Shown piece after piece: positions 8,025 to 29,248 of a DNA stretch of 40,602 bases. Under the pieces are notes generated by a model. It did not search any database. It saw nothing but the letters and a program-made list of their open reading frames with translations, and had not been told where the DNA came from. The first letter of the stretch is position 1; every line of letters starts with the position of its first letter. A program made the position numbers and the translations under genes. Source of the DNA: a virus (lineage: Duplodnaviria; Heunggongvirae; Uroviricota; Caudoviricetes); the IMG/VR virus record IMGVR_UViG_2541047755_000009. The stretch is one strand, 5' to 3'.

Positions 8025-8049
8025 CCATGTGTTTACATGAGGAGGAGAT

Positions 8050-9401: not shown

Positions 9402-9402
9402 T

Positions 9403-9414
9403 GTGACATGTCAC
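9403..9414. repeat. 12-bp perfect palindrome GTGACATGTCAC, copy 1 of 3
   Basis: identical 12-mer also at 26972-26983 and 29237-29248. Confidence 0.8.
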
Positions 9415-9707
9415 GTCCCTTTTCTGAATGATAGCCATTCGAAAAATGATGACATTCCACCGCAGACAATAGCAAAGATGATCCCACCAAAGAAGAGAAG
9501 GCCAGCCTGCCACCACTCCCACCGCCATACATCCACAGCGCCAACCATACCAACAATCGCTCCAACAAATGGAATATAGCTCACGATGAAAGCAATGGGG
9601 GCTGCAATTATCCAGTGCAATCCCCACCATGATTCAAGCCCAGCCATAATTGCTGCCAACTGAAAAAGACCAACGACGATATAAACAATGAATCCTATAG
9701 CTTGCAT
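9411..9707 (-). CDS. Trp-rich small membrane protein (about 3 TM helices), function unknown
   Basis: 98 aa; ATG start; last gene of the minus-strand operon before the terminator. Confidence 0.55.
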   Translation of the reverse strand: MQAIGFIVYIVVGLFQLAAIMAGLESWWGLHWIIAAPIAFIVSYIPFVGAIVGMVGAVDVWRWEWWQAGLLFFGGIIFAIVCGGMSSFFEWLSFRKGT

Positions 9708-9719
9708 GTAGTCACCTAT

Positions 9720-9893
9720 TTACCCAGTAAAAATAAGAGGCCTCCCCTCAATAAGGCTTGCAACAAGAACTACTCCCTGCACAACAAAGATGAACCAGCA
9801 AATAGCTTGAGTCTGAGGGTTAAGAAAATATTTGTAGCGGTCAATAAATAACAATACACCAGAAATTATCACACTCAAAATAATTAAAAACAC
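9720..9893 (-). CDS. possible 57-aa hydrophobic peptide (GTG start)
   Basis: not in ORF track; AAGGAAG motif 4 nt before GTG; two hydrophobic segments; directly precedes the 9411-9707 gene. Confidence 0.3.
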   Translation of the reverse strand: MFLIILSVIISGVLLFIDRYKYFLNPQTQAICWFIFVVQGVVLVASLIEGRPLIFTG

Positions 9894-9902
9894 AACACTT
9901 CC

Positions 9903-12377
9903 TTATTGCGGAGTGACATCCTGAGGTCGCCACCAGTATGTCTGGTTAAACTCTTTCTTCGAACGTTGCTCCATTTTACGCAAATAGCCTGGTGAAAAAT
10001 ACTCCTGCATCTGGTTAAAGATCATGTGATCGAGAGCCGCCTTCAAGTACCAGAGATTCGCACCAGGCATCAAACCTTTCCCCAGCTTCACCAGATCACC
10101 ACCAGTCTGCTCACTCTTCCCTTCCACAGCATTTAACGGTATGCCCTGAGCAATCTTCACTACGTCATCAACTAGACCAGCTACCGGGCCAAGCATCGAC
10201 GCCAGCGCGCCGCTTCCGTACCTAGTGTGATCTGACAATAAAAAGTCACCGTAAAGGCCAAGACCACCACCTTTCAGTAGAGCACCAAGCCAGAATTTTG
10301 CGGCATCTTCTCCTGTCATCTCTCGAGGATTACGACCAGACGCAAGGTCGTTAAGTTGTTGCGACAAAGCGCCAAGAATGGTCGTACTGGCAATAAACGT
10401 CGCAATATATGCCGCACGCCCACCAGCAGACGGCATACCCATAGCGCGTGACCAGTGACGCATAACAACCGAGATAGGGAACGATTTAAACAGGAAAACA
10501 CTTCTCGTTAATTCACCTTTCCATGTTCCACGCTGAATACCAGAACCGGTTATCAGTTGCTCACGTGCTCCCGGTGTAATAACAGCCATATCAACTTCTT
10601 CAGTTACGGCACCGAGCAGTTTACGCATTGCCTCAAATTTCACGCGTTCAGGCTCACCAAGATGTTTAACTGCTGAATCAGGGATACGCATAATGCTTTC
10701 CGGTGTCAGCATCGTATTATTACCGTTCCCCCAGTCCTCCTGTTGCGCCAACTTCCATACGCTCCAGTCTGTGTCAGTAATCCCTTTGCTTTTCAGGATA
10801 CGAAAATCAGAGTCATCGAGGCGACGAAGGTCTGGTGTCCGTGACACTACTTCTCCCAGGCTTCCCATCATGGTTACGCCATAGGCGCGCTTGTGCGCAT
10901 CTGACCATGCTGTAAGCCCACTGGCACGCATTACCGCCGTTGCAGCCCAACGAGACACAGACGGCCCCATATTATCCATCGCCCAGCGGTTAACGCTGCC
11001 AAGTAGAGATTCCATCGCCAGACCAGCGCGGCGCGCCCGCGCAAGTTCTGTACGGTTCGTTGGGTCCATAGCTTCAAGCTGGTTGCGGAATAACTGGTTC
11101 ATTGGAAGGTTGGTAACCTTCGCAGACAGATACATGGTTCCAAGATCAGAGAACGATGACAGCAACGCGGATCCGAGTCTGCTGGCAACCAGCCAGTTGC
11201 GGATATTGTCAGACCATCGCGCGATGTGCGGATTCGCTACAGGCTGTGTCTTTCCGGAAATAAAGTTGTACAGATTCTCTGTGTTGTTCGCCAGCCGCTC
11301 GACTTTACCGGTTTTACTCGGGTTAGCTGTTGCCGTTTCTGCCTTCACCTGATCAAGAAGAGAGCGGAAAACATGATCGGGGTTTGGACCATATGTTTCC
11401 ACCAGTGCAATATCTTTACTGATACCTTCCAGGTGACCGACCATGATTTCCCATAGAGAGCGATCGCCATAAAGTTGCTGATATTGCAGATAGGAATCTG
11501 CATCTTTGAAATGTATCTGTCGTGATGCATTACCACGGTTAGCACGTGCGCCGGAAATTCGCATTCCGGTATCAGTAAGCTTATTCAGCCCACCAGTAGC
11601 GATCGTGTTATAAGCCTCTCCAAGAAATGCAGACAACTCGGCATCGTTCATCAGTTGTCCATCGGCTCGGGTATAATATTTGCGATCCAGCTTACCTATA
11701 ACATCGCTAACCCATTTATCTTTTGATACCGCCCCAACCTTTTCCATAGAATGATGTTGAGGGATCCCCCAGTTTTCGAGATAGCCAATGTCCCCACCAG
11801 CATCATTAAACCGGCGGCGCAGTAGCTCTGTCACTTCTCTCCACGCCTTAGCACCTTTTCTTGCTTTAGCATTGCCAGTATTTTGCCCCCGCATTTCATA
11901 TACCAGGTCACGTACGCCCGCTTCATCTTCAAACAGACCAAAAAAGCGAGGATCAACTGCTTCGAATGCCTCCTGCAATTGACTCAATGCATAATCACGG
12001 GTGGCTTTTGTTCTGGATTCAACAGAGAGGAAATTCGATTTACCGTCTGCATTAAAAGCAATAGTACGGTTAAGAGCGCCAAGTTTCCCATCAGCCCCTT
12101 GATAGCTATTGATAAATTTATCCAATCTCTGACGTGCGGCTATAGTGAGGGCCACACGACGTTTCTTTAATGCCGCTTCTCGCTGTAATTCTTCAGATGC
12201 CAATTGTGCTGCACGATACAGCCGCTCTGATTCGGAAAGTTGTCGCCACGACATCGGGTCATCACGAGCAATGGAGCGCATATTTCGATAAATGCGGTCT
12301 TCAATGTTCTGTATTTCTCGCGCCGTTAACGTGCGCTGCGCCGCCTGCTGGACCGCTTGTATACATTCCTGTCTCAT
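9903..12377 (-). CDS. large virion protein (internal/ejection or tail protein)
   Basis: 824 aa in the late structural operon; position analogous to podovirus ejection proteins; no motif recognised. Confidence 0.55.
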   Translation of the reverse strand: MRQECIQAVQQAAQRTLTAREIQNIEDRIYRNMRSIARDDPMSWRQLSESERLYRAAQLASEELQREAALKKRRVALTIAARQRLDKFINSYQGADGKLGALNRTIAFNADGKSNFLSVESRTKATRDYALSQLQEAFEAVDPRFFGLFEDEAGVRDLVYEMRGQNTGNAKARKGAKAWREVTELLRRRFNDAGGDIGYLENWGIPQHHSMEKVGAVSKDKWVSDVIGKLDRKYYTRADGQLMNDAELSAFLGEAYNTIATGGLNKLTDTGMRISGARANRGNASRQIHFKDADSYLQYQQLYGDRSLWEIMVGHLEGISKDIALVETYGPNPDHVFRSLLDQVKAETATANPSKTGKVERLANNTENLYNFISGKTQPVANPHIARWSDNIRNWLVASRLGSALLSSFSDLGTMYLSAKVTNLPMNQLFRNQLEAMDPTNRTELARARRAGLAMESLLGSVNRWAMDNMGPSVSRWAATAVMRASGLTAWSDAHKRAYGVTMMGSLGEVVSRTPDLRRLDDSDFRILKSKGITDTDWSVWKLAQQEDWGNGNNTMLTPESIMRIPDSAVKHLGEPERVKFEAMRKLLGAVTEEVDMAVITPGAREQLITGSGIQRGTWKGELTRSVFLFKSFPISVVMRHWSRAMGMPSAGGRAAYIATFIASTTILGALSQQLNDLASGRNPREMTGEDAAKFWLGALLKGGGLGLYGDFLLSDHTRYGSGALASMLGPVAGLVDDVVKIAQGIPLNAVEGKSEQTGGDLVKLGKGLMPGANLWYLKAALDHMIFNQMQEYFSPGYLRKMEQRSKKEFNQTYWWRPQDVTPQ

Positions 12378-12382
12378 TTAAT

Positions 12383-14185
12383 TTAACCTCTCAAGAAACA
12401 CGCCACAGCAACATCAAACAGGCTGGAATCCTGTATTGCCTGCTCACTTTCCCTGTTCGCTTCATCCAGTACTTCACGCGCACTGCGCGATTGTGGATTA
12501 CCATCATCATCCAGCACGGTGATTATCATGTCAGGTGATTCAAGCAGCGAGTCTTCAGCTATACGCAGATCAATATCTCCTGCCGGATCTGCCATCATTT
12601 TTTGTTCTGTCTGTTGCAATATCTTACCGGGCTCAAAAGGAGCTACTTCTTCTGGCGTCCTGACCTCTGCTGTTTTATAGAATGAAACAGCCTGAGCATT
12701 AAGTTCACTTTCTGCCTGCTGTCGTCGTGCCAGTTCTGCTCGAGCTTCAAAAAACTGACCTCCAGGCTCGTGCGGCGCCAACGCGTTACGAGAAAATTCC
12801 AGGCGTTCTTGTGCCTGCCGGATTCGTTGGTCAATATCGCGAAGTCTGGCCTGTTTATCTGATCGAGCACGAGATAAAGCCTTACCGCTACCGGTTGGCT
12901 CTTCTGCAAGAATTTGTGCGCGCTGTTCAGTGAGATTTTCAATAATTCGTTGGCTATTAGCGATTTCAGACTGGTAAACCTTTCTATCGCCACGCGACAA
13001 AAGCTGCGCGGCCTGTTCTTCAAGCAACCGATTTTCTATAGCGCGCGCCGTTACTCCATCATCTACAGATGACAGAGCCTCATTAACTGCCTGAGACAGC
13101 AGACTCTTGCGCCCAGGAATTTCACTGAAAGATGCAGACTCAACAATGCTGGCAACGTCTACAGGTCTCCCCTGGCTAACATCAGACATGGCTTTTCGCA
13201 GAGCCTGAATGTGCGAATTACGCGAAAGCACGTTGATCGGAACGCCGGGAGCAATATCAATTTCAGCATGATGAGCGGCATTCGCCGCCAGTGCAGCATC
13301 AATATCAACTGGTGAAAAATTTGGTGCGCTTGTAGACTCGCCGCGAGAGTTAATAAATCTGCCGACACCACCAAACGCCACCCCAAGAACAGCATCAATA
13401 GCAATTGCCTGTCGATCCAACACATCATACTGGTTAGCCATTTCGCTATAGCCACCATCACGAAGCGTTTTTGCAGTAAGCCCACGCTGTGCCATACCGA
13501 ACGCAATATTTGTACCTGCGGCATAGGCAATATCTGGCGTTGCACGTACTGCTGTTGCTGCGGCGCGTCGCACTGAACTTTCACCCGTCCGCGCAAGCTG
13601 AGCCGCCACACCTTCCGCCAGCGCACCACCAGCACGTAACCCGAGGCTCATAGGGATCAGTGTTCCGGCACCAGCAGTAATACCCTGCACTAATCCCGCT
13701 TCCTGCGCCGTCCTGAAATCAACACCCTGTGCTGTCAACCGTTCAAACTCAGAAAAACCCTGTAGAGAAGTTACCGCCGCAGCACCTCCGACCGGACCAC
13801 CGAGCGTTGTACCGACAACAGCCTGCCCGCCCATATCGAACAACCCATAAAGGACCTGCCCGGCGGTTCCGGTTGTCGCGGCATCAGGCGTCAGCCGCTT
13901 AACCTGCTGCTCTGCTAGTTTTCTCTGCTCAGCAATGTATGAAACTGAAGTGTCATTGAGCGAGGTGTTTTCGTTAACAAGCTGAGCAATCGGGGATACG
14001 ATTTTATCCATCCCTGCCCATAGCAACTGATCTGGCTTTGCCACCAGCCCGGAGTACAAACCAGACAATGCCGCTCCTACAGCATTGTCGAAAAAACCAA
14101 CATCGCTGTTAAAGCCAACTGGATTTGATGCTGCTTCGTCAAGCTGCTGATTCTGGTTTACTGGATTAAGGCCAAAGTAACTCAT
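12383..14185 (-). CDS. virion protein (ejection/tail), Ala/Gly-rich
   Basis: 600 aa; start overlaps the upstream stop (ATGA); late operon. Confidence 0.55.
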   Translation of the reverse strand: MSYFGLNPVNQNQQLDEAASNPVGFNSDVGFFDNAVGAALSGLYSGLVAKPDQLLWAGMDKIVSPIAQLVNENTSLNDTSVSYIAEQRKLAEQQVKRLTPDAATTGTAGQVLYGLFDMGGQAVVGTTLGGPVGGAAAVTSLQGFSEFERLTAQGVDFRTAQEAGLVQGITAGAGTLIPMSLGLRAGGALAEGVAAQLARTGESSVRRAAATAVRATPDIAYAAGTNIAFGMAQRGLTAKTLRDGGYSEMANQYDVLDRQAIAIDAVLGVAFGGVGRFINSRGESTSAPNFSPVDIDAALAANAAHHAEIDIAPGVPINVLSRNSHIQALRKAMSDVSQGRPVDVASIVESASFSEIPGRKSLLSQAVNEALSSVDDGVTARAIENRLLEEQAAQLLSRGDRKVYQSEIANSQRIIENLTEQRAQILAEEPTGSGKALSRARSDKQARLRDIDQRIRQAQERLEFSRNALAPHEPGGQFFEARAELARRQQAESELNAQAVSFYKTAEVRTPEEVAPFEPGKILQQTEQKMMADPAGDIDLRIAEDSLLESPDMIITVLDDDGNPQSRSAREVLDEANRESEQAIQDSSLFDVAVACFLRG

Positions 14186-16695
14186 TGCGGAATATCTCCG
14201 GAGAATCTCTGACGCTTCTGTGTCAGATCAAGAACAACGGGAGAACCATCATCTTTTAGCAGATAACCAGTACCAAGTTTCACCAGGTACTGACTATCGC
14301 CGTAACTTTGCAAACCATACTGACCAGGCGGTGTTTTTATCCCTGTGCCAACAACTTGTTCATTCCAAGCCTGATTAACCTGCTTATCGAATTGCTCTGC
14401 AGACATTCCCCACGGCAAAAGAACATTCCCCATTCCGTTATAGTCATGCACGCCACCTGTAGCTACGTTAACAGCCTGTTTCCAGATATCATTGTCAATT
14501 TCGCCTGATACCACGCCTTTTTTCGCCATCACACCAGCGTAATAGTCCTTTGCGATCTCGTATGCCATTGATGCCCCCTGAGCATCACCAGCAAATGCAT
14601 TCTTCACCATGTCAGAAAACTCAAGGCGAAGATCAGCATCTTTAGGCATCGGAATACCTTTCTCGTCATCAGTACCTTTACGAGCCGCCGCGCCAGCAAG
14701 AATTGTCTGCGCAGCGGTTTCTGGAGACACGGAAACATCCGGATTAAACCAGTTTTTTTCTGCCAAAATACCACCTGGCTTATCCATCAGTATCCCGGCA
14801 ACGGCAGCAGATGGAGCGTTGGCACTGATCTGCTGTAGTGCTGACATATACACCTGCCCACCACCAGTGCTCTGCCTGATGGTATCGAGATATGCTGCCT
14901 GTTGGGAAACGGGCGCATCACGAAAGAAAACACCGATCTGATTGGCCTCGTCTTTGGAAAAGAACGTCAGTGGAGTGCCATATGACTTAGCAAGGTCACT
15001 GACCTGAGCAGCACGCAAGGCAACGCTCTGTCCAAAGTTATCCTTATTGCTCATGTCGATAGGCTTTGCCTGTCCGGCGGCAAGAGAGAACTGTACAGGA
15101 TCAGCCTGTCGCTGCTTTATCACCTGACTTGCAGCCGACACAACGTTGTCATAAAGAGCGGCTCGTGCCGCATAACCCTCCCCTGTCTCACCAGTATCCG
15201 GGCGTAATTGCTCAACATATGCTGTAATGCTGCTTGTCGGCATGTTGCGGAAAGAGCCTATATACTGTCCGGCGATTTGCGTATTTCTGAACTCGGTATA
15301 TCGCAGGTTTCCTTCTCTTACTCCATAAGCTGCAATAAAATCAGCCTCACCAGGTGGGTTAGGAAATTCAACGCCACGCATATACGCAGCTGTCGCATCG
15401 CGAACCTGGCTGTCAATCATCGTTTTATATTCAGCCTGCTGCTGCCGACGCAGTTGATCCGCCTGTCGCATAAAACTTGCCTGCGCCTCAGGAGATGCCG
15501 CATCGAATGCTGCATTACCGGTATAGCGTTTGGTGTTGGTTGGAATTGTTGATAAACCAAGTGCTGCACTGACACCAGCAGTTAACTGCTGATCACTGTA
15601 TGGCTGGCTACCGTTCTCATGATGGATAATGGCTGCACAAAGCGCCTTCAGGGTATCAGGATTAGATGCATCGAGAGGCTCATCAGCAGAAACGCCAAGT
15701 TGTTCGCACACTGCTTTGATATACGACATAGTGTCATTTTTATCAGCAGGCGGTGCCCAGCGATTAATTATCTCGCTGACGGTATCAATACCCTGCCTCT
15801 GATACGACATCAGGTTCCGCCCTAATGCACGAATCCCGTGTTCAGGTGTTTCGAATTTAGCAAATCGACCATCATCACCGGTCTGGCCTACCCACGGATT
15901 AGTTTTGCTGTATTCGAGATTTCCTGGGTTATTGTTGCGTATGCCACGGGCACGCTCGGAAGAGTCACTATCTGCTACAGCACGGCGAGCTCCAGCAGCA
16001 GTATCACTTAACTCGCCATTACTTTGGATGAATGCGGTCGCATTGTTTGCCGACCACTGGGACAATGCGGCATCAGCAACCTTCTCTTTAAACTCGATTT
16101 TCTTGGCCTGGATTTGCTCGTCGCTCCAGCCATGCGCAATGCCGTAATCCTCAATTTGCTGGAAAGTTTGCTTATTAGCCAATACGTATGCGGCGTTGTC
16201 GCCATACAATGCTGCGGCATTTTTACCATTGTTCAGCAGCGTCGCCTGAAACTGGCCTTCTTCGTAGGCATTTATTTGCCCTATCTCGTGCCGCCCGGCC
16301 TGCGTAGTGAACTGAATGCGCTGCTGCTGCGCCTGCTGCATGAAAGCATTACGAGCCTGTTCATCCGGCAGCGACATAGCCAATTGTTCGACCTGAGCAT
16401 CAAACTGCTGCGTATACTCATGGCCTTTTCCAATAGCATTTTTCCCTTTCAGGTTAAGCAATCCTGTTTCAGGATTATTCAGCAAATCACTGCTTATCTG
16501 ACTGAGGTTAAGAGATGCCTCCTGAGCCAAGGCAATATTGGCACGCTGTTTTGCCTGCCCAAAAACATCAATTGCCTCTTCCCCTGCCAGAACAAAAGCA
16601 TCACCAATACCTGGCTGAGAAAACGTCTGCAAGCCTGCTGACTGAACTCCACGGCTCTCAACCTGACGTCCGGATACTGTTGGTACGACTGGCAT
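14182..16695 (-). CDS. large virion protein, possible cell-wall-degrading ejection protein
   Basis: about 838 aa from ATG at 16695 (GGAGGA RBS; overlaps upstream stop as TAATG); internal IRNNNPGNL-containing segment that I tentatively associate with virion peptidoglycan hydrolase domains. Confidence 0.5.
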   Translation of the reverse strand: MPVVPTVSGRQVESRGVQSAGLQTFSQPGIGDAFVLAGEEAIDVFGQAKQRANIALAQEASLNLSQISSDLLNNPETGLLNLKGKNAIGKGHEYTQQFDAQVEQLAMSLPDEQARNAFMQQAQQQRIQFTTQAGRHEIGQINAYEEGQFQATLLNNGKNAAALYGDNAAYVLANKQTFQQIEDYGIAHGWSDEQIQAKKIEFKEKVADAALSQWSANNATAFIQSNGELSDTAAGARRAVADSDSSERARGIRNNNPGNLEYSKTNPWVGQTGDDGRFAKFETPEHGIRALGRNLMSYQRQGIDTVSEIINRWAPPADKNDTMSYIKAVCEQLGVSADEPLDASNPDTLKALCAAIIHHENGSQPYSDQQLTAGVSAALGLSTIPTNTKRYTGNAAFDAASPEAQASFMRQADQLRRQQQAEYKTMIDSQVRDATAAYMRGVEFPNPPGEADFIAAYGVREGNLRYTEFRNTQIAGQYIGSFRNMPTSSITAYVEQLRPDTGETGEGYAARAALYDNVVSAASQVIKQRQADPVQFSLAAGQAKPIDMSNKDNFGQSVALRAAQVSDLAKSYGTPLTFFSKDEANQIGVFFRDAPVSQQAAYLDTIRQSTGGGQVYMSALQQISANAPSAAVAGILMDKPGGILAEKNWFNPDVSVSPETAAQTILAGAAARKGTDDEKGIPMPKDADLRLEFSDMVKNAFAGDAQGASMAYEIAKDYYAGVMAKKGVVSGEIDNDIWKQAVNVATGGVHDYNGMGNVLLPWGMSAEQFDKQVNQAWNEQVVGTGIKTPPGQYGLQSYGDSQYLVKLGTGYLLKDDGSPVVLDLTQKRQRFSGDIPQ

Positions 16696-17704: not shown

Positions 17705-20175
17705 CAGAATCCCCCAACAGTAAGGCGAGGAATAACGGCAAGAACAGACAGCGGCAACGGATCAAGCTGACGGATTTTTACACGTCCGTTTTTGCCCCAG
17801 TTACTGTCCAGTTTCACTTCTACTTTTCCGGTAGCATCATCAACAGGATCATCGTAGAACTCGAATTCACGCTGTGGATATTCGTACCATTTACCGCCGG
17901 GCGTAGTCGCCCAGATGCCGCGACTGGCATTCACAACCAGAGTAACGGAGGGGATCACCTGTTTTTTGTCCAGCAGCGTTTCCTGTCCGTTAATGTTGAT
18001 ATCCAGTGTTTCGAATTCAGCAGTTATTGGCAGGCCGATGTGCACTACAGCCCCCGGAGATTCCAGCGTGACGGCACCTCTGGAAACCACTTTCTGTGGT
18101 TCCACGTTCGCATCAGAGAGAATGTTTACGGTCTGGCCTTCAAGATGAGACAGGCCTCCAAATGTCCGGCGCGCCATCTGCCAGTTCGTGGTGGCCACAT
18201 TCCTGAGGGATGGCGGGACGTTCCTGTTAGCACGAACCACTACAGCGGTATTGCTGGTTACAGAAATAATGTCGCAACGTAATTCTTTTGACACTTCATC
18301 GCCAGTACCAGGATCAGTTCCGGTATAAGGGAACTGTAGTTGCGCGCCGACATCACTACTGGTGAAGTACGCACCACCAGAAACACTGATTGTATATTCT
18401 GCACGGTAATCCCATTCACCAGAACCACCAGTGATGGTCATCGTTCTGTCAGACGTATTTCTTCCATCATAGCTAAGGCCAGAATCAACAAAGAAAGCAT
18501 CTTCATCGCTGGTAAATAAACGGCTGGACAGTCGCTCGATGTATCTCACTGTTTGCCCGTTAACGGTTCGGTTAATGACGAAATACACCGCATCTTCATT
18601 GCCTTCGCTGATACTGCATGTGCTTTCATATTTTCCGGTACTGGACTGTGGTGCCCATGCAAAAACCTGTTGATCACGCAAATAGGTCATCACCAGTAAT
18701 TTACCGTCATCACGAATGCAGAAGGCGCTGGAGTAAGGGACAATAGAGAAGCACCAGTCAACAATGCTGTGCTTCTGAAAAAGATGATTGGCAAGGATAG
18801 TAAGGTCGTTCCCCTGATAGCCGTCAACATCGAATGAGTAGGCCAGATCACGGACAACACTGCCTTTCTCCTGTACGAACAGAGCAATATTCGCCACGGC
18901 AATTGGTGGGACATTGCTCGAGCCATTTGATCCCTGAGAGCTGAATGCAAATGATGATGGGGTTAACACTTTGTTCTGGTCGCCGGTGATGACGTACTCA
19001 CCTCCGGAAGTCAGCGCCACCAGCGAACCAACATCAATCAGGTGGCGGATCTCATTAACCTGACGCCCGGCATAGGTGTAGATAATTCTGTCGTCATCCT
19101 GCGTAGGATTGCTTTTGCCAAAATCCTTATAATCCCCGGTACGGCTGGCCCAGATAGTCTGAGGGAACGCAGTCGATGCGGCGAAGTAAAGACGCTGTTG
19201 ATAATAAACAACAGTGCCAGGATAACCATTAACACTGTTCCAGGCATATTTAGCCCATTTATAGCTGGCATTATCCTCGCCAACTACCTGCGAAGGGATA
19301 TAGGAAATCACCTCAGCAGTTGCAGTAGTGCCATTTACAGCAGTTATACGGGCAATGCCAAAACCACTGTGCAGATACTCCCACTCAATGCCAGTATCAT
19401 CATCACCGGATCCGCCCCAGCCATCCCATGATGTGCCTTCTGTATGCGAAGGGCGCAAAGTGCCTGTTTTGCCTGCTGTAACGGCTCGATAGTAGTTACT
19501 GTCTGCACGGCGAATATCGCCAATCGACGTACTCTTACTGGTTTCCCATACCGGCACTGAATCCACTGCAGGCTGTTCCAGATAGAACAATTTGCCTACC
19601 TGCTCCGCGCCAAAAATAGAGGCGCTTGCCGTTAACGTAATTGTCCCGGTGCTGGCGCTGGCATAAACCGTCACTGACTCGTCAATATTGATATCTTCAA
19701 ATGGCCCGTTCTTCGTTACCACATCAACCAGTTGCCAGTTGTCATGAGCATATCGGCGCAACTCTTTCGGCGGGTATGCCGGGTGAACCAGCGTAAGCAC
19801 GTCGGCGCTTTGCGTGAATTTAATTCGGAACAGATCGGCTTCAGTATATGGCGTGGCAATTTCATAAATAACATTGCTGCTGTTCAGCACCAACGCACCA
19901 TCTTTGATAACGCGCATGTACTGGTGTCCGAACTCCAGAGCATAGGTCTGAACCGTCGAGAACTGGAACGGGATCAGGCGGCATTTCCGATTTGGGTATT
20001 TGGCGGCACCGACAAAACGCGTACCAGGTCGATTCTCAACGCCGCCATACTGCCGCACGATAAAGTTATCGCACTTGCGCAATGCCACCTGGTACTTCGC
20101 CATGTCGATACGACCGTACAACGACGGTCCAATCTCACCACCGGCAAAGCTGGGCTGGATCCAACTGATAGCCAT
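17704..20175 (-). CDS. tail protein (tube/hub candidate)
   Basis: 823 aa; between head genes and ejection proteins. Confidence 0.55.
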   Translation of the reverse strand: MAISWIQPSFAGGEIGPSLYGRIDMAKYQVALRKCDNFIVRQYGGVENRPGTRFVGAAKYPNRKCRLIPFQFSTVQTYALEFGHQYMRVIKDGALVLNSSNVIYEIATPYTEADLFRIKFTQSADVLTLVHPAYPPKELRRYAHDNWQLVDVVTKNGPFEDINIDESVTVYASASTGTITLTASASIFGAEQVGKLFYLEQPAVDSVPVWETSKSTSIGDIRRADSNYYRAVTAGKTGTLRPSHTEGTSWDGWGGSGDDDTGIEWEYLHSGFGIARITAVNGTTATAEVISYIPSQVVGEDNASYKWAKYAWNSVNGYPGTVVYYQQRLYFAASTAFPQTIWASRTGDYKDFGKSNPTQDDDRIIYTYAGRQVNEIRHLIDVGSLVALTSGGEYVITGDQNKVLTPSSFAFSSQGSNGSSNVPPIAVANIALFVQEKGSVVRDLAYSFDVDGYQGNDLTILANHLFQKHSIVDWCFSIVPYSSAFCIRDDGKLLVMTYLRDQQVFAWAPQSSTGKYESTCSISEGNEDAVYFVINRTVNGQTVRYIERLSSRLFTSDEDAFFVDSGLSYDGRNTSDRTMTITGGSGEWDYRAEYTISVSGGAYFTSSDVGAQLQFPYTGTDPGTGDEVSKELRCDIISVTSNTAVVVRANRNVPPSLRNVATTNWQMARRTFGGLSHLEGQTVNILSDANVEPQKVVSRGAVTLESPGAVVHIGLPITAEFETLDININGQETLLDKKQVIPSVTLVVNASRGIWATTPGGKWYEYPQREFEFYDDPVDDATGKVEVKLDSNWGKNGRVKIRQLDPLPLSVLAVIPRLTVGGF

Positions 20176-21109: not shown

Positions 21110-21153
21110 TCCTGCAATAAAGGGGCCGAAGCCCCTTGTCGGATTCGCGAGGC

Positions 21154-21489: not shown

Positions 21490-21499
21490 CGATATCACC

Positions 21500-21937: not shown

Positions 21938-21952
21938 CTTCTTTCTCCATTA

Positions 21953-21972
21953 GTGGGTCTGTTACGACCCAC
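21953..21972 (-). other. stem-loop immediately 3' of the major capsid gene
   Basis: 7-bp stem GTGGGTC / GACCCAC with 6-nt loop, followed by the RBS of the next gene; may stabilise or attenuate the transcript. Confidence 0.4.
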
Positions 21973-21988
21973 AGGTTAATAACAGGCG

Positions 21989-22975: not shown

Positions 22976-22989
22976 TGTCATTTCCTCTC

Positions 22990-23685: not shown

Positions 23686-23687
23686 GA

Positions 23688-23984
23688 TCACTCCTGTTCA
23701 CTGGCCTCTTTGGCCATCTTCAAATACTGTTCAGGGCAATGCGCCATAACGCGCTGAAACAGTTCCAGCGCCAGATTGCGTTGCCCCTCATTAAATGCCA
23801 TTGCCATAGCGTCCATCGGTGAGATAGCGGAAAACACACGGCCTTTCTCCAGCACCGACCAGACAACGCGACGCCCCTGTTCACTGCTCATGACAAAGCG
23901 AATGTCATCAATTTCACGCTGTGCCATGTCACGTTGCTTACGGGCGCTTTCTTCTTTCAGTTGATCATCTTCGTAATCTGTCAT
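23688..23984 (-). CDS. small acidic head-morphogenesis-region protein (hypothetical)
   Basis: 98 aa between portal and scaffold genes; ATGA overlap with the portal stop. Confidence 0.45.
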   Translation of the reverse strand: MTDYEDDQLKEESARKQRDMAQREIDDIRFVMSSEQGRRVVWSVLEKGRVFSAISPMDAMAMAFNEGQRNLALELFQRVMAHCPEQYLKMAKEASEQE

Positions 23985-25660
23985 TGTGATTGCCCACCCT
24001 GACCACTAACTGCATTCGCCATAGCTGACAAAACACTCGGATCCGAAGTTTTAGCTTCGCTTAGCGTCTTGGCGCCCTGTGCCGCCGCCATTCCCATCGC
24101 CATCATTTGTTGCTGCTGTTGCTGCTGTGCCCGTTGCTGGCGAGCCTGCTCAACCTGTTCCTGCGGAACAATGACGGTTGGAGACACTCCGGACATATCA
24201 GCGAATGCATCGATCGCCTGATCAACGTTGAGTTTGTCGAGAGCTTCTGGTTTCGCTTGCGCAAGTTGACCAATGAAGTTGACCGTAGACGCCAGACTGG
24301 ACAGGCCGATAGACTTCTGCGCCTGAGCCATGACGGAAATGTATTCGACCTTCAGGGGCATACCTTCCATCGCGTCAGGCGGTGGCGGCAGCATGTTTTT
24401 ACGCACCATCATCGAGAAAGCGCGGTCAATGAGAGGATTAAGACATTCGTCGTTCAGACGCTCCAGAACCGGCCCCAACATCAGAAGTTTTTCTTCTTTC
24501 ATTTCGATCACCGCTTCAACAGGCATCGAGCGGGTATTGATGTTCTGCAACATCATGAACAGATCGACAAAGTAGGCGCTGTTAATGATTTGACGAGTGT
24601 CCTGAATGTCTGCCACCAAATCTGCTGTACTGGGGTTAACCAGATAAGCAGGCCTGAAACCATCCTGACCAGTAATCTGATCGATATACGTGATGTCGCC
24701 AGGAAGAAGGGAGGCACGCTGATTCTTGAGGGAAGTCGGAGCAACCATCGGCGGATTGGTGGCTTTATCAATCAACTGCGACTTGCGCTTCTGGAGAAGC
24801 TGCAATGCCTTAACAGGTCCAAGCGCCAGCATACCCGGGCATGATGATCCATAAACATCTTCGCCGTTAACTTCCCAGCGCGGAGCCATAATTGGAAACT
24901 CATCGAATCCGGACTCACGCAACAACTTGTCGTTATCGCCACCAACCTCGTAATAAACCGATTTGAATGGCTTGTTCTTGCTATCCAGCTTCGATGTATC
25001 GCGGTCAATGTTCGGGTAAACCGAATGCATCACTTCAATCCACTTCTCGTAGGTTCCGCTTTCCCACATGCTTTTTACGGATTCGCTGACGTTATTTAGC
25101 CCGAACTCCTGAACAAGCTGACGAACAGTCATAGAGAACTTGCGAAAACAGGTGTCCACACTGCCACGAGGTGAGTTAGCCAGGTAGTAACTGCCTATCG
25201 GGAATGGCATTGTGCGAATGATGTCCTCATCATCCTCCAGTACCGCCATTGCACCGGTGCTGTATGTGCCGAGGCTTCCGTATAACTGCGGCAGCGACTG
25301 ATAGAGATTCGACTTATTGAACATATCGTTCATGCGGTTCTGCACCGCCTCAAGCCACAACTTAACAGGGCCATAATCCATCATTTCAGGATCTGGCGTA
25401 GCCAGGCGAAACCACGGACGCGCGGGGCTTGTGATGCCTGACATCATGCCGCTGGCGAGAGTGCGCGCCGCCATAGTCCCGGTCGAATCAATAATGCGTG
25501 TATTGCGTCGATCGTTACGGTTGACCTCAGAAGTCAGAAAGCGGGAACCACGCGGGTTGATGTAATCACTCAACTCGCGCCAGTGCGGCTCGAACGACTG
25601 ACGCTCGCTTTCAAGTTGTGCGAACTGTTTGTTCAATCGCTCTTTAGTTGTTTCCGCCAT
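23981..25660 (-). CDS. portal protein
   Basis: 559 aa directly downstream of the terminase block; GGAG RBS; Gln/Ala-rich C-terminal tail. Confidence 0.75.
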   Translation of the reverse strand: MAETTKERLNKQFAQLESERQSFEPHWRELSDYINPRGSRFLTSEVNRNDRRNTRIIDSTGTMAARTLASGMMSGITSPARPWFRLATPDPEMMDYGPVKLWLEAVQNRMNDMFNKSNLYQSLPQLYGSLGTYSTGAMAVLEDDEDIIRTMPFPIGSYYLANSPRGSVDTCFRKFSMTVRQLVQEFGLNNVSESVKSMWESGTYEKWIEVMHSVYPNIDRDTSKLDSKNKPFKSVYYEVGGDNDKLLRESGFDEFPIMAPRWEVNGEDVYGSSCPGMLALGPVKALQLLQKRKSQLIDKATNPPMVAPTSLKNQRASLLPGDITYIDQITGQDGFRPAYLVNPSTADLVADIQDTRQIINSAYFVDLFMMLQNINTRSMPVEAVIEMKEEKLLMLGPVLERLNDECLNPLIDRAFSMMVRKNMLPPPPDAMEGMPLKVEYISVMAQAQKSIGLSSLASTVNFIGQLAQAKPEALDKLNVDQAIDAFADMSGVSPTVIVPQEQVEQARQQRAQQQQQQQMMAMGMAAAQGAKTLSEAKTSDPSVLSAMANAVSGQGGQSQ

Positions 25661-25674
25661 TTCAATGACTCCGG

Positions 25675-25881
25675 TTACTGACCAAGCAGCGTTTTACCGC
25701 TGGTATTAGCGGTTGATGTGTCGCCCTGAGAACCGGTAAGCAGCGTAGAACTACGACCAGCAGCAGCGCGACGGCGACGTGTTTCTTCGTCGCGGGCATC
25801 AACAACGGCGGCATCCTGCTCCTGTGGTGCTGCCTGAACTTCTGGTGTTGCAGGCACTGATGGTGAGCTACCCATGCACAT
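25675..25881 (-). CDS. small low-complexity protein upstream of portal (hypothetical)
   Basis: 68 aa; GGAG about 10 nt upstream of ATG. Confidence 0.35.
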   Translation of the reverse strand: MCMGSSPSVPATPEVQAAPQEQDAAVVDARDEETRRRRAAAGRSSTLLTGSQGDTSTANTSGKTLLGQ

Positions 25882-25970
25882 ATCAATGACTCCGTACGCA
25901 ATTAAATTATTACCAATTTAACCACATATGATTTATTTATCGTAGACAGTTGACATTTAACGCGCGAATT

Positions 25971-25987
25971 ATTACCTTTAAGGTAAC
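25971..25987. promoter_or_regulatory. operator-like palindrome ATTACC-TTTAA-GGTAAC (site C) next to a TTGACA hexamer
   Basis: same family as the immunity-region operators; lies between the late operon and the tRNA leader. Confidence 0.5.
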
Positions 25988-26315
25988 CAAAGAGTTCATT
26001 CCGGTTACTAACCTGACTGGCTTGTCGTTAAATTGAACAGGTGGAGTGAGCTTTTATTTTGAGCAGTACGGCGTATGGCACATGCGACGATAGCGGTCTG
26101 GATACGTTTAAGGGGCACCCTCCCTTGCTCGGGCAAACGAACCAGGTAGCCGGAATGTGCAAGTCGAGCGGTTTTATTCCGCGCACGGGGATTCACCATC
26201 CCGGCGATTCGGTGTGACGCCTCGGAAGAGACGAGGGTACAACGATGAGAGCATTGGATATTAGCGGGCTGTTCCACCCTACCTGATATCGAGCCAAACC
26301 AGTGCTCTCAGCGTT

Positions 26316-26392
26316 GTGGCATTAGCTCAGTTGGACAGAGCAACCGCCTTCTAAGCGGTTGGTCGCAGGTTCGAATCCTGCATGCCACGCCA
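26316..26392 (+). tRNA. tRNA-Arg, anticodon UCU (reads AGA)
   Basis: 77 nt cloverleaf: acceptor GTGGCAT / ATGCCAC, D-stem GCTC / GAGC with A20, anticodon stem ACCGC / GCGGT, loop CTTCTAA, T-arm GCAGG-TTCGAAT-CCTGC, G73, encoded CCA. Confidence 0.9.
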
Positions 26393-26436
26393 GAATCACG
26401 CCTAAGGACCGTGATGCCAGAAGTTCCAGGGGATTG

Positions 26437-26477
26437 GCGGTGATGGTTTCCCTTGAAGGACTATCACCGCCCTTTTT
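26437..26477 (+). terminator. rho-independent terminator downstream of the tRNA
   Basis: GGCGGTGAT...ATCACCGCC stem followed by CTTTTT. Confidence 0.65.
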
Positions 26478-26555
26478 ACAGCAGGACGCCATTGCGATGA
26501 CTTCATGCTGTAAACCAGTACAGCCACGGAAGGCATAACTCATTGCTTCCAGTTC

Positions 26556-26579
26556 GCCCGGTTCGCCGGGCATTTTTTT
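26556..26579 (+). terminator. second hairpin plus T-run directly upstream of the 26596 gene RBS (terminator or attenuator)
   Basis: GCCCGG-ttcg-CCGGGC followed by ATTTTTTT. Confidence 0.55.
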
Positions 26580-26595
26580 AAGGTGAGAATAGACT

Positions 26596-26967
26596 ATGAG
26601 TGACAAAGACATTGAATCTGAAATTCAGGCTAAAGGTTTAGCCGCGCCGCGCGTTACGCCAGACCATATCGAGAGCATTATTGCTCAGGAGGCATATTTC
26701 ACAGCAGAAGATGGTGTCTTTGGCGTAGCCATAAAAGCGAAACATACTGGCGGAGAGGTAAACTACCAGCCGCACGAATCACTTTCTCTGCTGACATTCT
26801 GCGTTCTGGTGCTGCGCAACGGCTTCACCGTCACCGGAGAGAGCGCCTGTGCAAGCCCGGAAAACTTTGATGCGGAAATTGGTCGGAAGATTGCCCGGCA
26901 GAATGCTGTAAACAAAATCTGGATGCTTGAAGGTTACTTGCTGAAGCAGAAGTTAAGCGAGCAATAA
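26596..26967 (+). CDS. conserved phage protein, tentatively Gp49 / Sf6-gene-66-like
   Basis: 123 aa; AAGGTGAG RBS; family assignment from memory only. Confidence 0.4.
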   Translation: MSDKDIESEIQAKGLAAPRVTPDHIESIIAQEAYFTAEDGVFGVAIKAKHTGGEVNYQPHESLSLLTFCVLVLRNGFTVTGESACASPENFDAEIGRKIARQNAVNKIWMLEGYLLKQKLSEQ

Positions 26968-26971
26968 CACC

Positions 26972-26983
26972 GTGACATGTCAC
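26972..26983. repeat. 12-bp perfect palindrome GTGACATGTCAC, copy 2 of 3
   Basis: between the convergent ends of the 26596 gene and the large terminase gene. Confidence 0.8.
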
Positions 26984-27057
26984 AAACAGCCAGCCGATGA
27001 GCTGGCTTTGTTTTATCCTCACCAGAGGATATCAGCAGCATTATCCCCTCCAGAGGA

Positions 27058-28533
27058 TTAAGCATAGGGATCGTAATCTGTAATGGCCTTGCCTTGCTGG
27101 TTCTGCTGACCGGGAATTCGCAGACGCTTCGACACCGGGAAAGCAAACGTCAGCAGTAGCGCATCGCCTTTACCCGGCGAACGCCCAAGCCGCTCCTTGA
27201 TATCTTCCTTCGGTTCGATAACGATTTTACCGTCCACGCGAACTTTGTACTCTGCCGCCGACAGGTCGTCCGCTGTTTCCTGGTCATCCAGCATGCCGCC
27301 CAGCCTCAGCCATGTCTTGCATGCATTGAACATCTCCCCACGCTTGTTAAGCATCTGCGGGTCAGTGGACGCACCGCCGAACGGAACAAGTTGCCATGTA
27401 CGTCCCCAGCCATCACCGATTGACTTCAAACCGGTTCCGTAACCGAAGTCGATGAACACCGCGTCAGCCTGGTACTGGTCTTCAAAGTCAGCGATACGCT
27501 TCGCCATAATCAGATCGTCGGTGGTCTTGTTGCCAGTCCATAGCACCTTACTATGCAACCCCTGCCGCAGGTATATCACCGCGTCATCAACGCCTGAATA
27601 TGCCGGGTCAACACCGATTATCACCGGTGCATGTGCCACCTGCGCAGCAGTTACCACCCGTTTCATTGCCTCGTCAGTAAGACCGGTAGGGATAAACTGC
27701 AATTCAGATGCATTAGGGAATATGCCGCGTACACGGATTTTAACGAAGTCGCTGTCTTCCCCGTAGTCATCAACCCATTTCTGCAATTGCTGCTTGTTAG
27801 TACCTTCCACCGTCCGGCTGTCAATCTGCGCAGTTTTCCAGCGGTGTTTATATTTGCGGAAACATTCACGGAATCGCCCGGTATTACGTGTCGGGTTTCC
27901 GAACGCCACCCAGATAATCTCAGTGTCTTCGTCCGTTAGCGCACCTTCGGCAACTTCCCACACCAGATCCGCAATGTTCGACGCTTCATCGAATACCACG
28001 ATAATACGTTTGCGCTCGTTGTGTAGTCCGGCGAATGCCTCAGTGTTGTGCTCAGACCAGGGAATTGCGTCAGCTCGCCACCGCTTGTCGTGCCCAGGAT
28101 CATTGCTGTACATCGCGGTAGCGGTACAGGTAAACCAGTCTTTCGTGATAGCAAGGTTGGACCACTTGATAATTTCCGGCCAGGTCTTCGTTCGTAGCTG
28201 GTTGTCGGTGTTGGCGGTCACCACGACCTTACAATCCTCGCAAGTGGACATGCCCCAGTTGATCAGCATTGAGATGAATGCGGATTTACCAATACCGTGA
28301 CCAGAAGCACGTGCCAGCATAAGCGGCTGATAGCGCGTCTCTGGATTCTGCAGATGATCACGTATCTCTCGGAACGCATCGGCCTGCCACTGACGTGGAC
28401 CGGTGGCATGTGCCAGTTCAGTACCCTCTTCCCCCCACGGGAACGCATAGAGGGCATAGCCAAGCGGATCGTGAGTGAACCCTGCAATATCCTCGATCAA
28501 CTGCTCTTCAGGAGATAACGCTGTATCTGTCAC
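27058..28533 (-). CDS. terminase large subunit
   Basis: Walker A-like ARASGHGIGKS; about 490 aa; GTG start overlapping the small-subunit stop. Confidence 0.85.
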   Translation of the reverse strand: MTDTALSPEEQLIEDIAGFTHDPLGYALYAFPWGEEGTELAHATGPRQWQADAFREIRDHLQNPETRYQPLMLARASGHGIGKSAFISMLINWGMSTCEDCKVVVTANTDNQLRTKTWPEIIKWSNLAITKDWFTCTATAMYSNDPGHDKRWRADAIPWSEHNTEAFAGLHNERKRIIVVFDEASNIADLVWEVAEGALTDEDTEIIWVAFGNPTRNTGRFRECFRKYKHRWKTAQIDSRTVEGTNKQQLQKWVDDYGEDSDFVKIRVRGIFPNASELQFIPTGLTDEAMKRVVTAAQVAHAPVIIGVDPAYSGVDDAVIYLRQGLHSKVLWTGNKTTDDLIMAKRIADFEDQYQADAVFIDFGYGTGLKSIGDGWGRTWQLVPFGGASTDPQMLNKRGEMFNACKTWLRLGGMLDDQETADDLSAAEYKVRVDGKIVIEPKEDIKERLGRSPGKGDALLLTFAFPVSKRLRIPGQQNQQGKAITDYDPYA

Positions 28534-29126
28534 TGATTACCATCCTGACGTTCTTTGAGTCGCTTCCTGGCTGCTGCTATGCGATCAGCAATTGTCACAT
28601 TCACATTAACATCCAGACGTTCTTTGAACGCGTTGACATCAACATGCTTACCAATCAGTTCTAGGTTCTTCACCTTGTCAGGCCATTTAATTTTTTTGAG
28701 GATTGTCTCTATCGAATCCTCGTTCATGTTCATGATGGTCGATGACAGATCAAAGCCACTAAGCGTAGTGCGCCAGATTTTCGGCCACTCACGGATTGGT
28801 TTAAGGCTCCCATCGTCGTTGAGGATATCGATCACGTCCATCTGGTCGATCTCCACCAAGCGCATGAGAACGTAATCAGCACTGACGCGCATTCGTTTGT
28901 TGCGCTCCTCCATCAACTCGGCAATCCGTTTTTGAATGCGTTCATCGCGCATCATGACACTGGCTTTAACTGCCGCTGTATTTGGGGAGAATCCTGCGTT
29001 AATCGCTGCCTGAGTCTGGTTTTCAGGCGTTTTGATGTATGACTGGCAATAAGCCTCCTGCATTGCTGTGAGCGGCTTAAATTGCGTTGATTTGCGTTTA
29101 TAGGTTTTAGGTTCAGCAGGCATCAT
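28530..29126 (-). CDS. terminase small subunit
   Basis: about 198 aa from the ATG doublet near 29126 (track ORF extends to a TTG at 29204 without RBS); directly upstream of and coupled to the large subunit. Confidence 0.6.
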   Translation of the reverse strand: MMPAEPKTYKRKSTQFKPLTAMQEAYCQSYIKTPENQTQAAINAGFSPNTAAVKASVMMRDERIQKRIAELMEERNKRMRVSADYVLMRLVEIDQMDVIDILNDDGSLKPIREWPKIWRTTLSGFDLSSTIMNMNEDSIETILKKIKWPDKVKNLELIGKHVDVNAFKERLDVNVNVTIADRIAAARKRLKERQDGNQ

Positions 29127-29236
29127 AACCACCGTGGTAATAGTTACCGTTGTGGTAATAGTACCATGCAAAATAAAGCCGCCATAGTTGGCGGCAGTAT
29201 TCAAAACCCGTCAAATTCATCATGCATAATCTACTC

Positions 29237-29248
29237 GTGACATGTCAC
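29237..29248. repeat. 12-bp perfect palindrome GTGACATGTCAC, copy 3 of 3
   Basis: immediately upstream of the small terminase gene. Confidence 0.8.

Follow-up and report, generated by a model that had tools for sequence, protein, structure and literature searches.

Among the described systems closest to the element analysed here is MatP with its matS site. The sequence of matS is GTGACRNYGTCAC (PMC6907758; PMC3603311), and true matS is avoided by prophages (PMC3603311). The palindrome of the present phage contains the half-sites of matS (13 bp, GTGAC-RNY-GTCAC) and looks like matS minus one base, whereas its spacing is strictly 12 bp and the 13-bp matS spacing is found once in 3.73 Mb of phage loci. 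In addition, matS is located in a chromosomal macrodomain (Ter of E. coli), while the palindromes are located at phage gene ends.

Protein roadblocks (LacI, CodY/CcpA-type) and bidirectional terminators constitute a second group of related systems. They likewise combine the site of a DNA binder, here a predicted one, with a hairpin between convergent units, as seen at copies 1 and 2 of the palindrome. In contrast to these known cases, a role of the palindromes is one that we infer. A third group comprises the ribbon-helix-helix (RHH) repressors with palindromic operators, such as Arc, Mnt, CopG, and MetJ and the antitoxins TacA and ParD. RHH proteins have a beta-alpha-alpha fold, which forms a two-stranded ribbon on dimerisation, and they recognise short repeats, inverted or direct, one of which is usually located at the protein's own gene. 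The protein encoded next to copy 3, which belongs to PHROG 536 and is predicted to have an RHH core, differs from them in having no sequence-family match to these proteins, an extra Cys-rich C-terminal domain, and no toxin partner. Moreover, most of the palindromes are positioned at gene 3' ends or beside terminators, not over promoters. To our knowledge, no phage-encoded boundary sites that recur where transcription units end have been described, and literature on the 12-mer, on epsilon15/phiV10 repeats, on SPC32H, and on phage matS yielded no description of the element.

Palindromes beside terminators at the ends of transcription units

The window, the whole 40,602-nucleotide stretch of DNA analysed, derives from a phiV10/epsilon15-like (Uetakevirus) temperate podophage. 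An exact scan confirms that it contains GTGACATGTCAC three times, at 9403-9414, 26972-26983, and 29237-29248, as the first-pass annotation had reported. Only 0.0024 copies of one given 12-mer are expected by chance in 40.6 kb. Among 300 first-order Markov simulations of the window, which served as the null model for palindrome counts, a 12-bp palindrome reached three copies in 0/300 and two copies in 3/300, supporting the earlier statement that three copies are beyond chance. No Rfam family was found at any of the three sites. The palindromes and their surroundings are composed of the following features.

9377-9402, minus strand: intrinsic terminator (AGGCCGCTTTCGCGGCCT plus T-tract) with hairpin 9385-9402, closing the structural operon
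9403-9414, no strand: palindrome copy 1 (tGTGACATGTCACg), holding the TGA of the last late ORF and abutting the terminator hairpin
9411-9707, minus strand: last late-operon ORF, a cargo slot of variable content that encodes 98 aa without a Pfam family; its TGA stop lies within copy 1
23921-23932, no strand: one-mismatch copy GTGCCATGTCAC, inside coding sequence
26596-26967, plus strand: convergent cargo gene of Pfam family Phage_gp49_66, with its stop 4 nt before copy 2
26972-26983, no strand: palindrome copy 2 (cGTGACATGTCACa), flanked by the stop codon of the gp49/66-family gene on one side and by a terminator hairpin shared with TerL on the other
26988-27014, plus strand: intrinsic terminator (AGCCAGCCGATGAGCTGGCT plus TTGTTTT) with hairpin 26988-27007 and the T-tract on the side away from the palindrome
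29125-29159, no strand: two repressor-operator-like sites (ATTACC-N5-GGTAAT type), located directly before the probable start of TerS and reaching into it
29170-29195, minus strand: intrinsic terminator (GCCGCCAACTATGGCGGC plus TTTATTTT) with hairpin 29195-29178, between copy 3 and TerS
29237-29248, no strand: palindrome copy 3 (cGTGACATGTCACa), overlapping the TGA (29245-29247) of the PHROG 536 gene
29245-29592, minus strand: candidate cognate gene, 115 aa, PHROG 536, with its TGA stop within copy 3; predicted RHH and Cys-rich tail

Copy 1 sits between the last late ORF, whose gene differs from relative to relative, and the hairpin of the structural-operon terminator. Read on the plus strand, this terminator presents its hairpin followed by the palindrome at the place where a T-tract would be. 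At copy 2, the hairpin starts 4 nt beyond the palindrome, and TerL (27058-28533, minus strand) converges from the other side. From copy 3, the terminator at 29195-29178 lies 41 nt downstream, and the probable ATG of TerS (29126/29123) follows at about 110 nt. The repressor-operator-like sites at 29125-29159, whose homologue in epsilon15 carries a repressor-binding annotation, are context outside the palindrome system.

Every copy in the window is thus placed beside an intrinsic terminator closing a transcription unit, with the T-tract on the opposite side of the hairpin. The units ending at the sites are the early-right operon, the terminase pair with the convergent cargo gene, and the structural operon with a convergent SOS/repressor-controlled antirepressor operon. 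Counted over distinct contexts, a long ORF ends inside the site or no more than 12 nt from it in 48/67, compared with 148/1000 random positions (p = 3e-23), and a terminator-like hairpin is present within 50 nt in 30/67, compared with 79/400 (p = 3e-5). The palindrome itself does not qualify as an intrinsic terminator, having a 4-bp stem only and no T-tract; it adjoins terminators instead. The first-pass annotation had correctly placed the copies at module boundaries, and these positions can now be narrowed down to gene and transcription-unit 3' ends beside terminators.

Conservation of the motif and its pairing with the PHROG 536 gene

In phiV10, epsilon15, SPN1S, and Tyrion, the identical 12-mer occupies all three equivalent positions between diverged flanks, as it does in about 80 metagenomic relatives. 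The equivalents of copy 1 are located at 19493, 19517, 19662, and 20377 of the four named phages, respectively, and those of copy 2 at 2262, 2142, 2174, and 2702. The scan of related phages for exact and one-mismatch copies, suggested in the first-pass annotation, therefore recovers the motif at equivalent borders. Across 80 IMG/VR relatives (1.37 Mb), 133 motif matches were counted against 1.3 expected, all but one of them (132/133) being the identical 12-mer.

The sequences around the sites are mosaic. Among 47 distinct relatives, 46 share copy 3 without any change, whereas the sequence downstream falls into three unrelated types beginning 1-2 nt past GTGACATGTCACG. At copy 2 of the relatives, about ten apparently unrelated gene 3' ends, by our reading, stop exactly 4 nt away, and 13 contexts show a gene end at +4 from the palindrome. 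BLAST matches of TL-2011b and EC.W1-9 end at 9404-9415. For annotation, the motif provides a sharp landmark of module borders and cargo-gene slots in Uetakeviruses.

Several further candidates were examined and set aside. The Klebsiella phage BUCT711, which kept copies 1 and 3 and lost copy 2, is not a natural knockout, because the PHROG 536 gene is present. The one-mismatch copy at 23921 has a counterpart at 5306 of phiV10, and no match within two mismatches occurs at the equivalent position of epsilon15, SPN1S, or Tyrion; it is probably due to chance. A possible fourth site, closing the lysis cassette, matches at 11/12 in SPN1S and 10/12 in epsilon15, with nothing there in the window and phiV10. 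In the phiV10 record, the first position falls midway through the third palindrome; this is not a physical genome end, the record having merely been opened after the stop codon of the last gene.

The spacing of the two half-sites is strict. GTGAC-N2-GTCAC is found 334 times in 3.73 Mb of loci, whereas each of the other spacer lengths counted (0, 1, and 3-8 bp) yields 0-3 matches against 3.6 expected. The flanks follow a Y...R rule in 65/68 distinct contexts and are Watson-Crick complementary in only 22/68, and the central pair and the orientation vary in L200. The symmetry of the site is of the DNA type rather than the RNA type.

Distant PHROG 536 homologues are encoded on many unrelated phage backbones: by N15 and phiKO2, by P2-like phages of Yersinia and Serratia, and by Vibrio, Photobacterium, and Aeromonas phages. 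Their genomes contain one to three copies of YGTGAC-NN-GTCACR each, about 100 times the chance expectation, and one site lies beside the PHROG 536 gene in every lineage. N15 and phiKO2 have three sites apiece, one of which overlaps the stop of the homologue, and the single site of a Yersinia P2-like phage is likewise located at this stop. Three sites are present in Vibrio K233, two in VPHZ6, and three in Photobacterium, and the Aeromonas phage carries the variant GTGACCGGACAC three times. Two prophages with two sites each have one of them upstream of the gene: at 31 nt in Morganella, and at about 100 nt in Providencia, directly before a small preceding ORF. The partition sites of phiKO2 and N15 are not the same element but a different palindrome, GTGCGACCACGGTCGCAC.

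The pairing is sharpest among 80 P2-like loci picked by GpA. The motif is present in 41/41 loci with the gene (46 sites in 733 kb) and in 0/39 loci without it (598 kb; Fisher 1e-23). In an unbiased scan, 65 of the first 120 IMG/VR matches to TGTGACATGTCACG lie on contigs with the PHROG 536 gene or a Uetakevirus backbone.

The PHROG 536 protein as candidate binder and its possible role

The 115-aa protein has no Pfam family match. It is predicted to consist of a basic N-terminal helix, an RHH core, and a C-terminal Cys-rich region (CxxC...C...C), with helices modelled at 8-21, 33-45, 55-77, and 107-111. The Cys-rich region probably binds zinc. The AlphaFold model resembles RHH DNA binders, MatP among them. 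A first AF2 model, built on a shallow alignment (pLDDT 71), gave no Foldseek PDB matches, and a profile search of PDB sequences returned noise only. A family profile search retrieved about 1,100 clusters in phages and prophages of Enterobacterales, Vibrionaceae, and Aeromonas. N15 gp46 is not covered by Silpe et al. 2023 (PMC10432266).

The best explanation, to which we assign a probability of about 0.6, is that YGTGAC-NN-GTCACR and the PHROG 536 gene form a two-part module, the sites being operators of the phage's own protein. We give the same odds to the PHROG 536 protein being the binder of the palindromes; a dimer would occupy each of them, with one YGTGAC half-site per subunit. A protein-binding site, one of the readings in the first-pass annotation, is therefore favoured and acquires a candidate binder in the adjacent PHROG 536 protein, the binding itself being predicted from sequence and structural model.

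Since the sites are located at the 3' ends of units and abut the hairpin side without a T-tract, a boundary element is the most likely function of such a complex, which we propose tentatively as a possibility. As a roadblock, the bound protein may strengthen the terminators, allow them to act in both directions, or otherwise tune read-through between modules. A conserved activator geometry was not found: the site centre is at about -66 to the predicted Pa promoter in N15, at about -91 to a possible TerS promoter in the window, and at about -73 in epsilon15.

If the assignment of the binder is right, it provides a function and a DNA target for a widespread family of 'hypothetical' phage proteins. 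The module would then be a portable gene-plus-site unit that has been exchanged among podo-, sipho-, and myoviruses and phage-plasmids, and protein-marked boundaries at the ends of transcription units would be indicated as a design feature of these genomes.

A more specific version of the two-part module, which we hold to be improbable though worth stating, is that temperate phages and phage-plasmids of MatP-bearing bacteria carry a miniature MatP/matS-like system, not an ordinary transcription factor. The RHH protein would read matS half-sites at 12-bp spacing, orthogonally to host MatP, from a few sites at module boundaries. Its task may be to organise, bridge, or insulate phage DNA; alternatively, the system may protect this DNA from the MatP-MukBEF-divisome machinery of the host or disturb that machinery. 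The PHROG 536 protein differs from MatP in its length of 115 aa and in having no four-helix bundle, and a Cys-rich tail replaces the coiled coil, so that only the RHH part is comparable. Homology between the two found no support in Pfam or hhalign, and the family HMM scored 2.8 bits, though with the alignment in register. The likeness to matS minus one base is directly testable and could show phages reusing or evading the host code of chromosome organisation.

Other readings of the palindromes

The palindromes could be primarily recombination sites or microhomologies promoting module exchange between phages, and similarity to relatives does break right at them: at the three types past copy 3, at the cargo ends at copy 2, and at 9404-9415. 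The first-pass annotation had raised a recombination hotspot, and mosaic breakpoints do coincide with the palindromes. Whatever their role, conserved functional islands flanked by variable modules would give the same picture, so that the coincidence does not make the sites a cause of recombination. Moreover, none of the sites is associated with a recombinase, the protein paired with them is predicted to resemble RHH DNA binders, 12 bases are very short for homologous exchange, and the module is single-copy in P2-like phages. We regard this reading as unlikely.

An equally unlikely view takes copy 3 as the DNA-loading site of a Q-like late antiterminator and copies 1 and 2 as release or termination points. 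As in the lambda Q/QBE-PR'-tR' system, the PHROG 536 gene is the last early gene before the late genes, a promoter-like site is followed by a terminator (in the window, epsilon15, SPN1S, and Tyrion), and the protein contains a Cys-rich region. The lambda Q protein has a zinc finger. In the window, copy 3 overlaps the promoter-like GTGACA, followed by an 18-bp spacer, CATGAT, and then the terminator before TerS. Epsilon15-type relatives show a 17-bp spacer to TAAATT, and the promoter arrangement is absent from types B and C. In contrast to lambda Q, however, the PHROG 536 protein has no Pfam or PHROG match to Q families, and N15 and phiKO2 carry its module alongside a true Q, with this separate homologue and the late promoter elsewhere. 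In addition, many relatives have another gene or a LexA-controlled promoter straight after the palindrome, and the additional sites, copies 1 and 2, are not at promoters. TerS, the portal block, and the tailspike are each closely preceded by repressor-type operators, suggesting that these units have their own promoters. The late regulator proposed in the earlier reading is thus possible for copy 3 but leaves copies 1 and 2 unexplained.

Binding by a host protein, most obviously MatP, with the phage gene as a linked passenger, appears a little less likely still. The half-sites GTGAC/GTCAC are those of matS, and the hosts of the motif-bearing phages all belong to Enterobacterales, Vibrionaceae, or Aeromonas, which are MatP-bearing lineages. 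The strict 12-bp spacing and the avoidance of true matS by prophages noted above both argue against it, as does the absence of the motif from 39/39 P2-like loci lacking the phage gene. Moreover, the Aeromonas variant changes one half-site alongside a diverged protein.

The element might also act in RNA, as a small hairpin of the 3' UTR or intercistronic leader that is bound by protein or processed and affects stability or translation of the next gene. The sites are transcribed and located at gene ends just ahead of terminators, and a ribosome-binding site follows at a distance of 0-10 nt in N15, in some Uetakevirus relatives, and in the Vibrio and Aeromonas phages. We consider this very doubtful, since the RNA stem comprises 4 bp only, the Y...R rule of the flanks is not base pairing, the half-sites are conserved rather than covarying, the central pair and orientation vary in L200, and the predicted fold of the PHROG 536 protein is of a DNA-binding type.

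A packaging (pac) signal for terminase, raised in the first-pass annotation, is highly improbable: two copies flank the terminase genes and a Vibrio/Photobacterium copy lies 10-20 nt before the TerS ribosome-binding site beside a conserved cos-like region, but three copies per genome contrast with the single terminase-tied site expected of pac/cos, the same module is carried by cos phages with unrelated terminases (N15, phiKO2, P2-like) far from cos and the terminase genes, and the motif follows the PHROG 536 gene in its distribution rather than the type of terminase.

The palindrome at the ends of transcription units

The first-pass annotation had described a 12-bp perfect palindrome occurring three times, beyond chance, at gene-block borders. 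The window scan recovers exact GTGACATGTCAC at 9403, 26972 and 29237 (copies 1, 2 and 3), and the window ORFs and hairpins confirm all three placements. The chance expectation of one given 12-mer in 40.6 kb is 0.0024, and none of 300 Markov simulations of the window produced a 12-bp palindrome with three copies or more. Coding sequence at 23921 contains a copy with one mismatch; phiV10 shares its counterpart, and epsilon15, SPN1S and Tyrion have no match within two mismatches at the equivalent position.

The window represents a phiV10/epsilon15-like temperate podophage (Uetakevirus) with its late genes on the minus strand. The features around the palindromes are as follows.

Sites and units near the three palindromes
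9385-9402: hairpin beside copy 1
26988-27007: hairpin beside copy 2
29195-29178: terminator next to copy 3
29125 and 29143: repressor-operator-like sites (ATTACC-N5-GGTAAT) upstream of the small terminase gene (TerS)
25971: same type of site, upstream of the portal block
6586: same type, perfect, upstream of the tailspike gene and at the head of the antirepressor operon
6586-9379 (+): antirepressor operon, P1 immI / N15 immA type
6641: LexA box of this operon
7018-7094 (+): isrK, in this operon
7096-7935 (+): Bro-N antirepressor gene, in this operon
7114-7200 (+): C4 antisense RNA, in this operon

Given this layout, the palindromes delimit three units at their 3' ends. The early-right operon closes with copy 3, and the terminator comes next. 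Copy 2 groups with the terminase pair and a convergent gp49/66-family gene. Copy 1 groups with the structural operon and, converging on it, the antirepressor operon. The latter, which further holds two ORFs without family, reaches copy 1 on the plus strand from the side opposite to the structural operon and ends at the adjacent hairpin. At copies 1 and 2 the palindrome lies on the hairpin side without a T-tract. Repressor-operator-like sites also occur in the immunity region. The epsilon15 annotation has repressor-binding sites at the corresponding places, both there and ahead of TerS, gp3 and the tailspike gene. For TerS, the longest ORF begins at TTG 29204, the start annotated in phiV10, and its frame would cross the terminator and operators; judging by the epsilon15 alignment and a Pfam match that begins at residue 45, the real start is probably ATG 29126/29123.

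A linked regulator gene and the motif

Copy 3 overlaps the TGA of a 115-aa ORF (29245-29592, minus strand) that is assigned to PHROG 536, annotated 'transcriptional regulator', at E = 5e-54 and falls in no family of Pfam or NCBIfam. Tblastn detects distant homologues (30-45% identity) in N15 (gp46), phiKO2 (gp45), Yersinia phages of the P2-like type, and phages of Vibrio and Aeromonas. Every one of these genomes contains GTGAC-NN-GTCAC, at about 100x the expected density in each phage group, and the central pair tends to follow lineage (AT, TG or GC; mixed in Vibrionaceae phages).

Motif sites in genomes with a homologue
N15 and phiKO2: three sites each, at the homologue's stop, inside repA, and about 25 nt ahead of the -35 element in the promoter predicted for the immA antirepressor operon
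Yersinia phage: one site, at the homologue's stop
Vibrio K233: three sites, one 19 nt before the TerS start
VPHZ6: two sites, one followed by a terminator
Photobacterium: three sites, one as stop-palindrome-terminator
Morganella prophage: two sites, 31 nt upstream of the regulator gene and inside the late operon
Providencia prophage: two sites, one inside the late operon and one ahead of a small ORF that precedes the regulator gene, about 100 nt from the latter
Aeromonas phage 14AhydR10PP (weak homologue): three identical copies of an asymmetric variant, GTGACCGGACAC, at 251, 3032 and 29428

In the Aeromonas phage each copy adjoins a ribosome-binding site and precedes a start codon by 15-26 nt; one of these start codons belongs to the regulator itself. 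Two of the copies follow good sigma-70-like promoters, at about +8 to +21, and one of these promoters serves the regulator homologue. The repA-internal GTGACTGGTCAC is conserved in both phage-plasmids (N15 33237, phiKO2 36062) and is distinct from the annotated partition sites. The late-operon copy of the Morganella (17846) and Providencia (17357) prophages lies between a Bbp16-like gene and the next late gene; in Morganella the downstream gene is called as starting at the ATG in the palindrome centre.

The association was examined in 80 P2-like loci chosen via the replication protein GpA, independently of the regulator. Loci carrying a PHROG 536 homologue have the motif in 41/41 cases, with 46 sites in 733 kb, against 0/39 for loci lacking one (0 sites in 598 kb; Fisher 1e-23), which excludes a general host-driven motif. 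Since one site is part of the gene's 3' end, this result shows a gene-plus-site module and is not by itself proof of binding. In an unbiased IMG/VR scan for TGTGACATGTCACG, 65 of the first 120 matches fall in contigs with the gene or a Uetakevirus backbone; the remainder are compatible with random background, save a few multi-site loci. In IMG/VR contigs of lambdoid type (L387, L301/L328/L391), GTGACATGTCAC or GTGACACGTCAC occurs two to three times in about 10 kb, and one copy encodes residues 2-5 of a Q-like protein. Their fetched stretches hold no PHROG 536 homologue, which would mean a binder encoded elsewhere on the contig or use of the motif by another family.

Placement is also biased. 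In 48/67 distinct contexts vs 148/1000 random positions (p = 3e-23), an ORF of at least 60 codons has its stop in the TGA of the palindrome or at most 12 nt ahead of the palindrome; the stop is the TGA itself in 30 contexts and lies exactly at +4 in 13. Terminator-like hairpins occur within 50 nt in 30/67 contexts vs 79/400 (p = 3e-5), mostly at Uetakevirus copies 1 and 2, and also in VPHZ6, L190 and the Photobacterium locus.

The evidence best supports the palindromes as operators for a predicted ribbon-helix-helix (RHH) type protein that the phage itself encodes. In the window phage the sites lie at unit ends, directly against terminators and on the hairpin side with no T-tract, so the most economical idea is that the bound protein would form a roadblock or boundary. 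In other lineages the pair may act as an ordinary repressor and its operator, since it precedes ribosome-binding sites or adjoins promoters there.

Conservation and mosaic borders in relatives

Extending the exact and one-mismatch scan to related phages, as the first-pass annotation had proposed, shows that the 12-mer is kept. Epsilon15, SPN1S and Tyrion have it unchanged at all three equivalent positions, and phiV10 differs by one mismatch in copy 3, at the point at which its record has been opened; flanking and hairpin sequences vary among these four phages. In 80 IMG/VR relatives there are 133 motif matches in 1.37 Mb vs 1.3 expected, 132 of them the identical 12-mer. A near copy overlaps the Rz stop at the lysis-cassette end in SPN1S (26722, GTGACATGTCAT) and epsilon15 (26618, GTGACATGGCAT), and the window and phiV10 have none there.

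In an alignment of the copy-3 region, the palindrome is invariant in 46/47 distinct versions, and within 1-2 nt of it the following sequence changes among three unrelated arrangements: a terminator with operators and TerS, one additional gene, or a promoter under LexA control with a UmuD-like gene. The copy-2 slot, convergent with the large terminase gene, holds roughly ten apparently unrelated cargo genes in the contexts read (e.g. L056-L083, about 12.5-14.7 kb). Their stops lie exactly 4 nt from the palindrome (13 contexts; 3 nt in one case), across a spacer resembling CRCC, which recalls a cassette-like arrangement. The coincidence of recombination breakpoints and palindromes is real, and would be expected of a recombination site; however, a conserved functional island explains it equally well, and we consider a recombination site unlikely.

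Other candidate binders and roles

Use of copy 3 as a Q-like loading site is likewise improbable. Host MatP is a still less probable binder. Its chromosomal site matS is the 13-bp GTGACRNYGTCAC (PMC6907758; PMC3603311), so that the phage site equals matS minus the central base; MatP recognises matS through an RHH domain, and all hosts seen for the phage family are Enterobacterales, Vibrionaceae or Aeromonas. Escherichia and Salmonella prophages are reported to avoid true matS (PMC3603311). The family HMM forced onto MatP aligns phage residues 7-77 with MatP 73-141 at only 2.8 bits, in the register of an earlier by-eye alignment, and hhalign found nothing. We take the likeness to be one of working principle and do not class the phage system with MatP/matS; spacing, domain architecture and sequence homology, each tested, set the two apart.

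An RNA element is very unlikely, as the palindrome would form a stem of only 4 bp. Moreover, a Y...R extension by one position per side holds in 65/68 distinct contexts, but its bases are Watson-Crick complementary in only 22/68, a rule predicted by independent DNA half-sites (YGTGAC) and not by an RNA stem. The spacing is strict: the 3.73 Mb of fetched loci contain 334 matches with a 2-bp spacer, and 0-3 matches for each spacer of 0, 1 or 3-8 bp vs 3.6 expected. Packaging is the weakest reading, and a pac site is extremely improbable.

Regulator-operator pairs such as the one favoured here are familiar. Neither the motif nor a function for the protein was found described in the searchable literature. 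Three features are unusual: the sites sit at 3' ends and terminators, the module is portable between phage types that are unrelated to one another, and the half-sites equal those of matS at a spacing one base shorter.

Elsewhere, the window carries a tRNA gene and an insertion (1-1810). The insertion falls in the interval from the end of Rz (about 2000) to the start of the integrase (window end), which in phiV10 measures only about 320 bp.

Further elements in the window
26316-26392 (+): tRNA-Arg (anticodon TCT), between the cargo gene and portal block
1-516: TraT-like/glycine-zipper lipoprotein gene, in the insertion
532-1071: DUF5384 gene, in the insertion
1219-1728 (-): IS200-family transposase, in the insertion
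1687-1810: STnc490 sRNA, in the insertion
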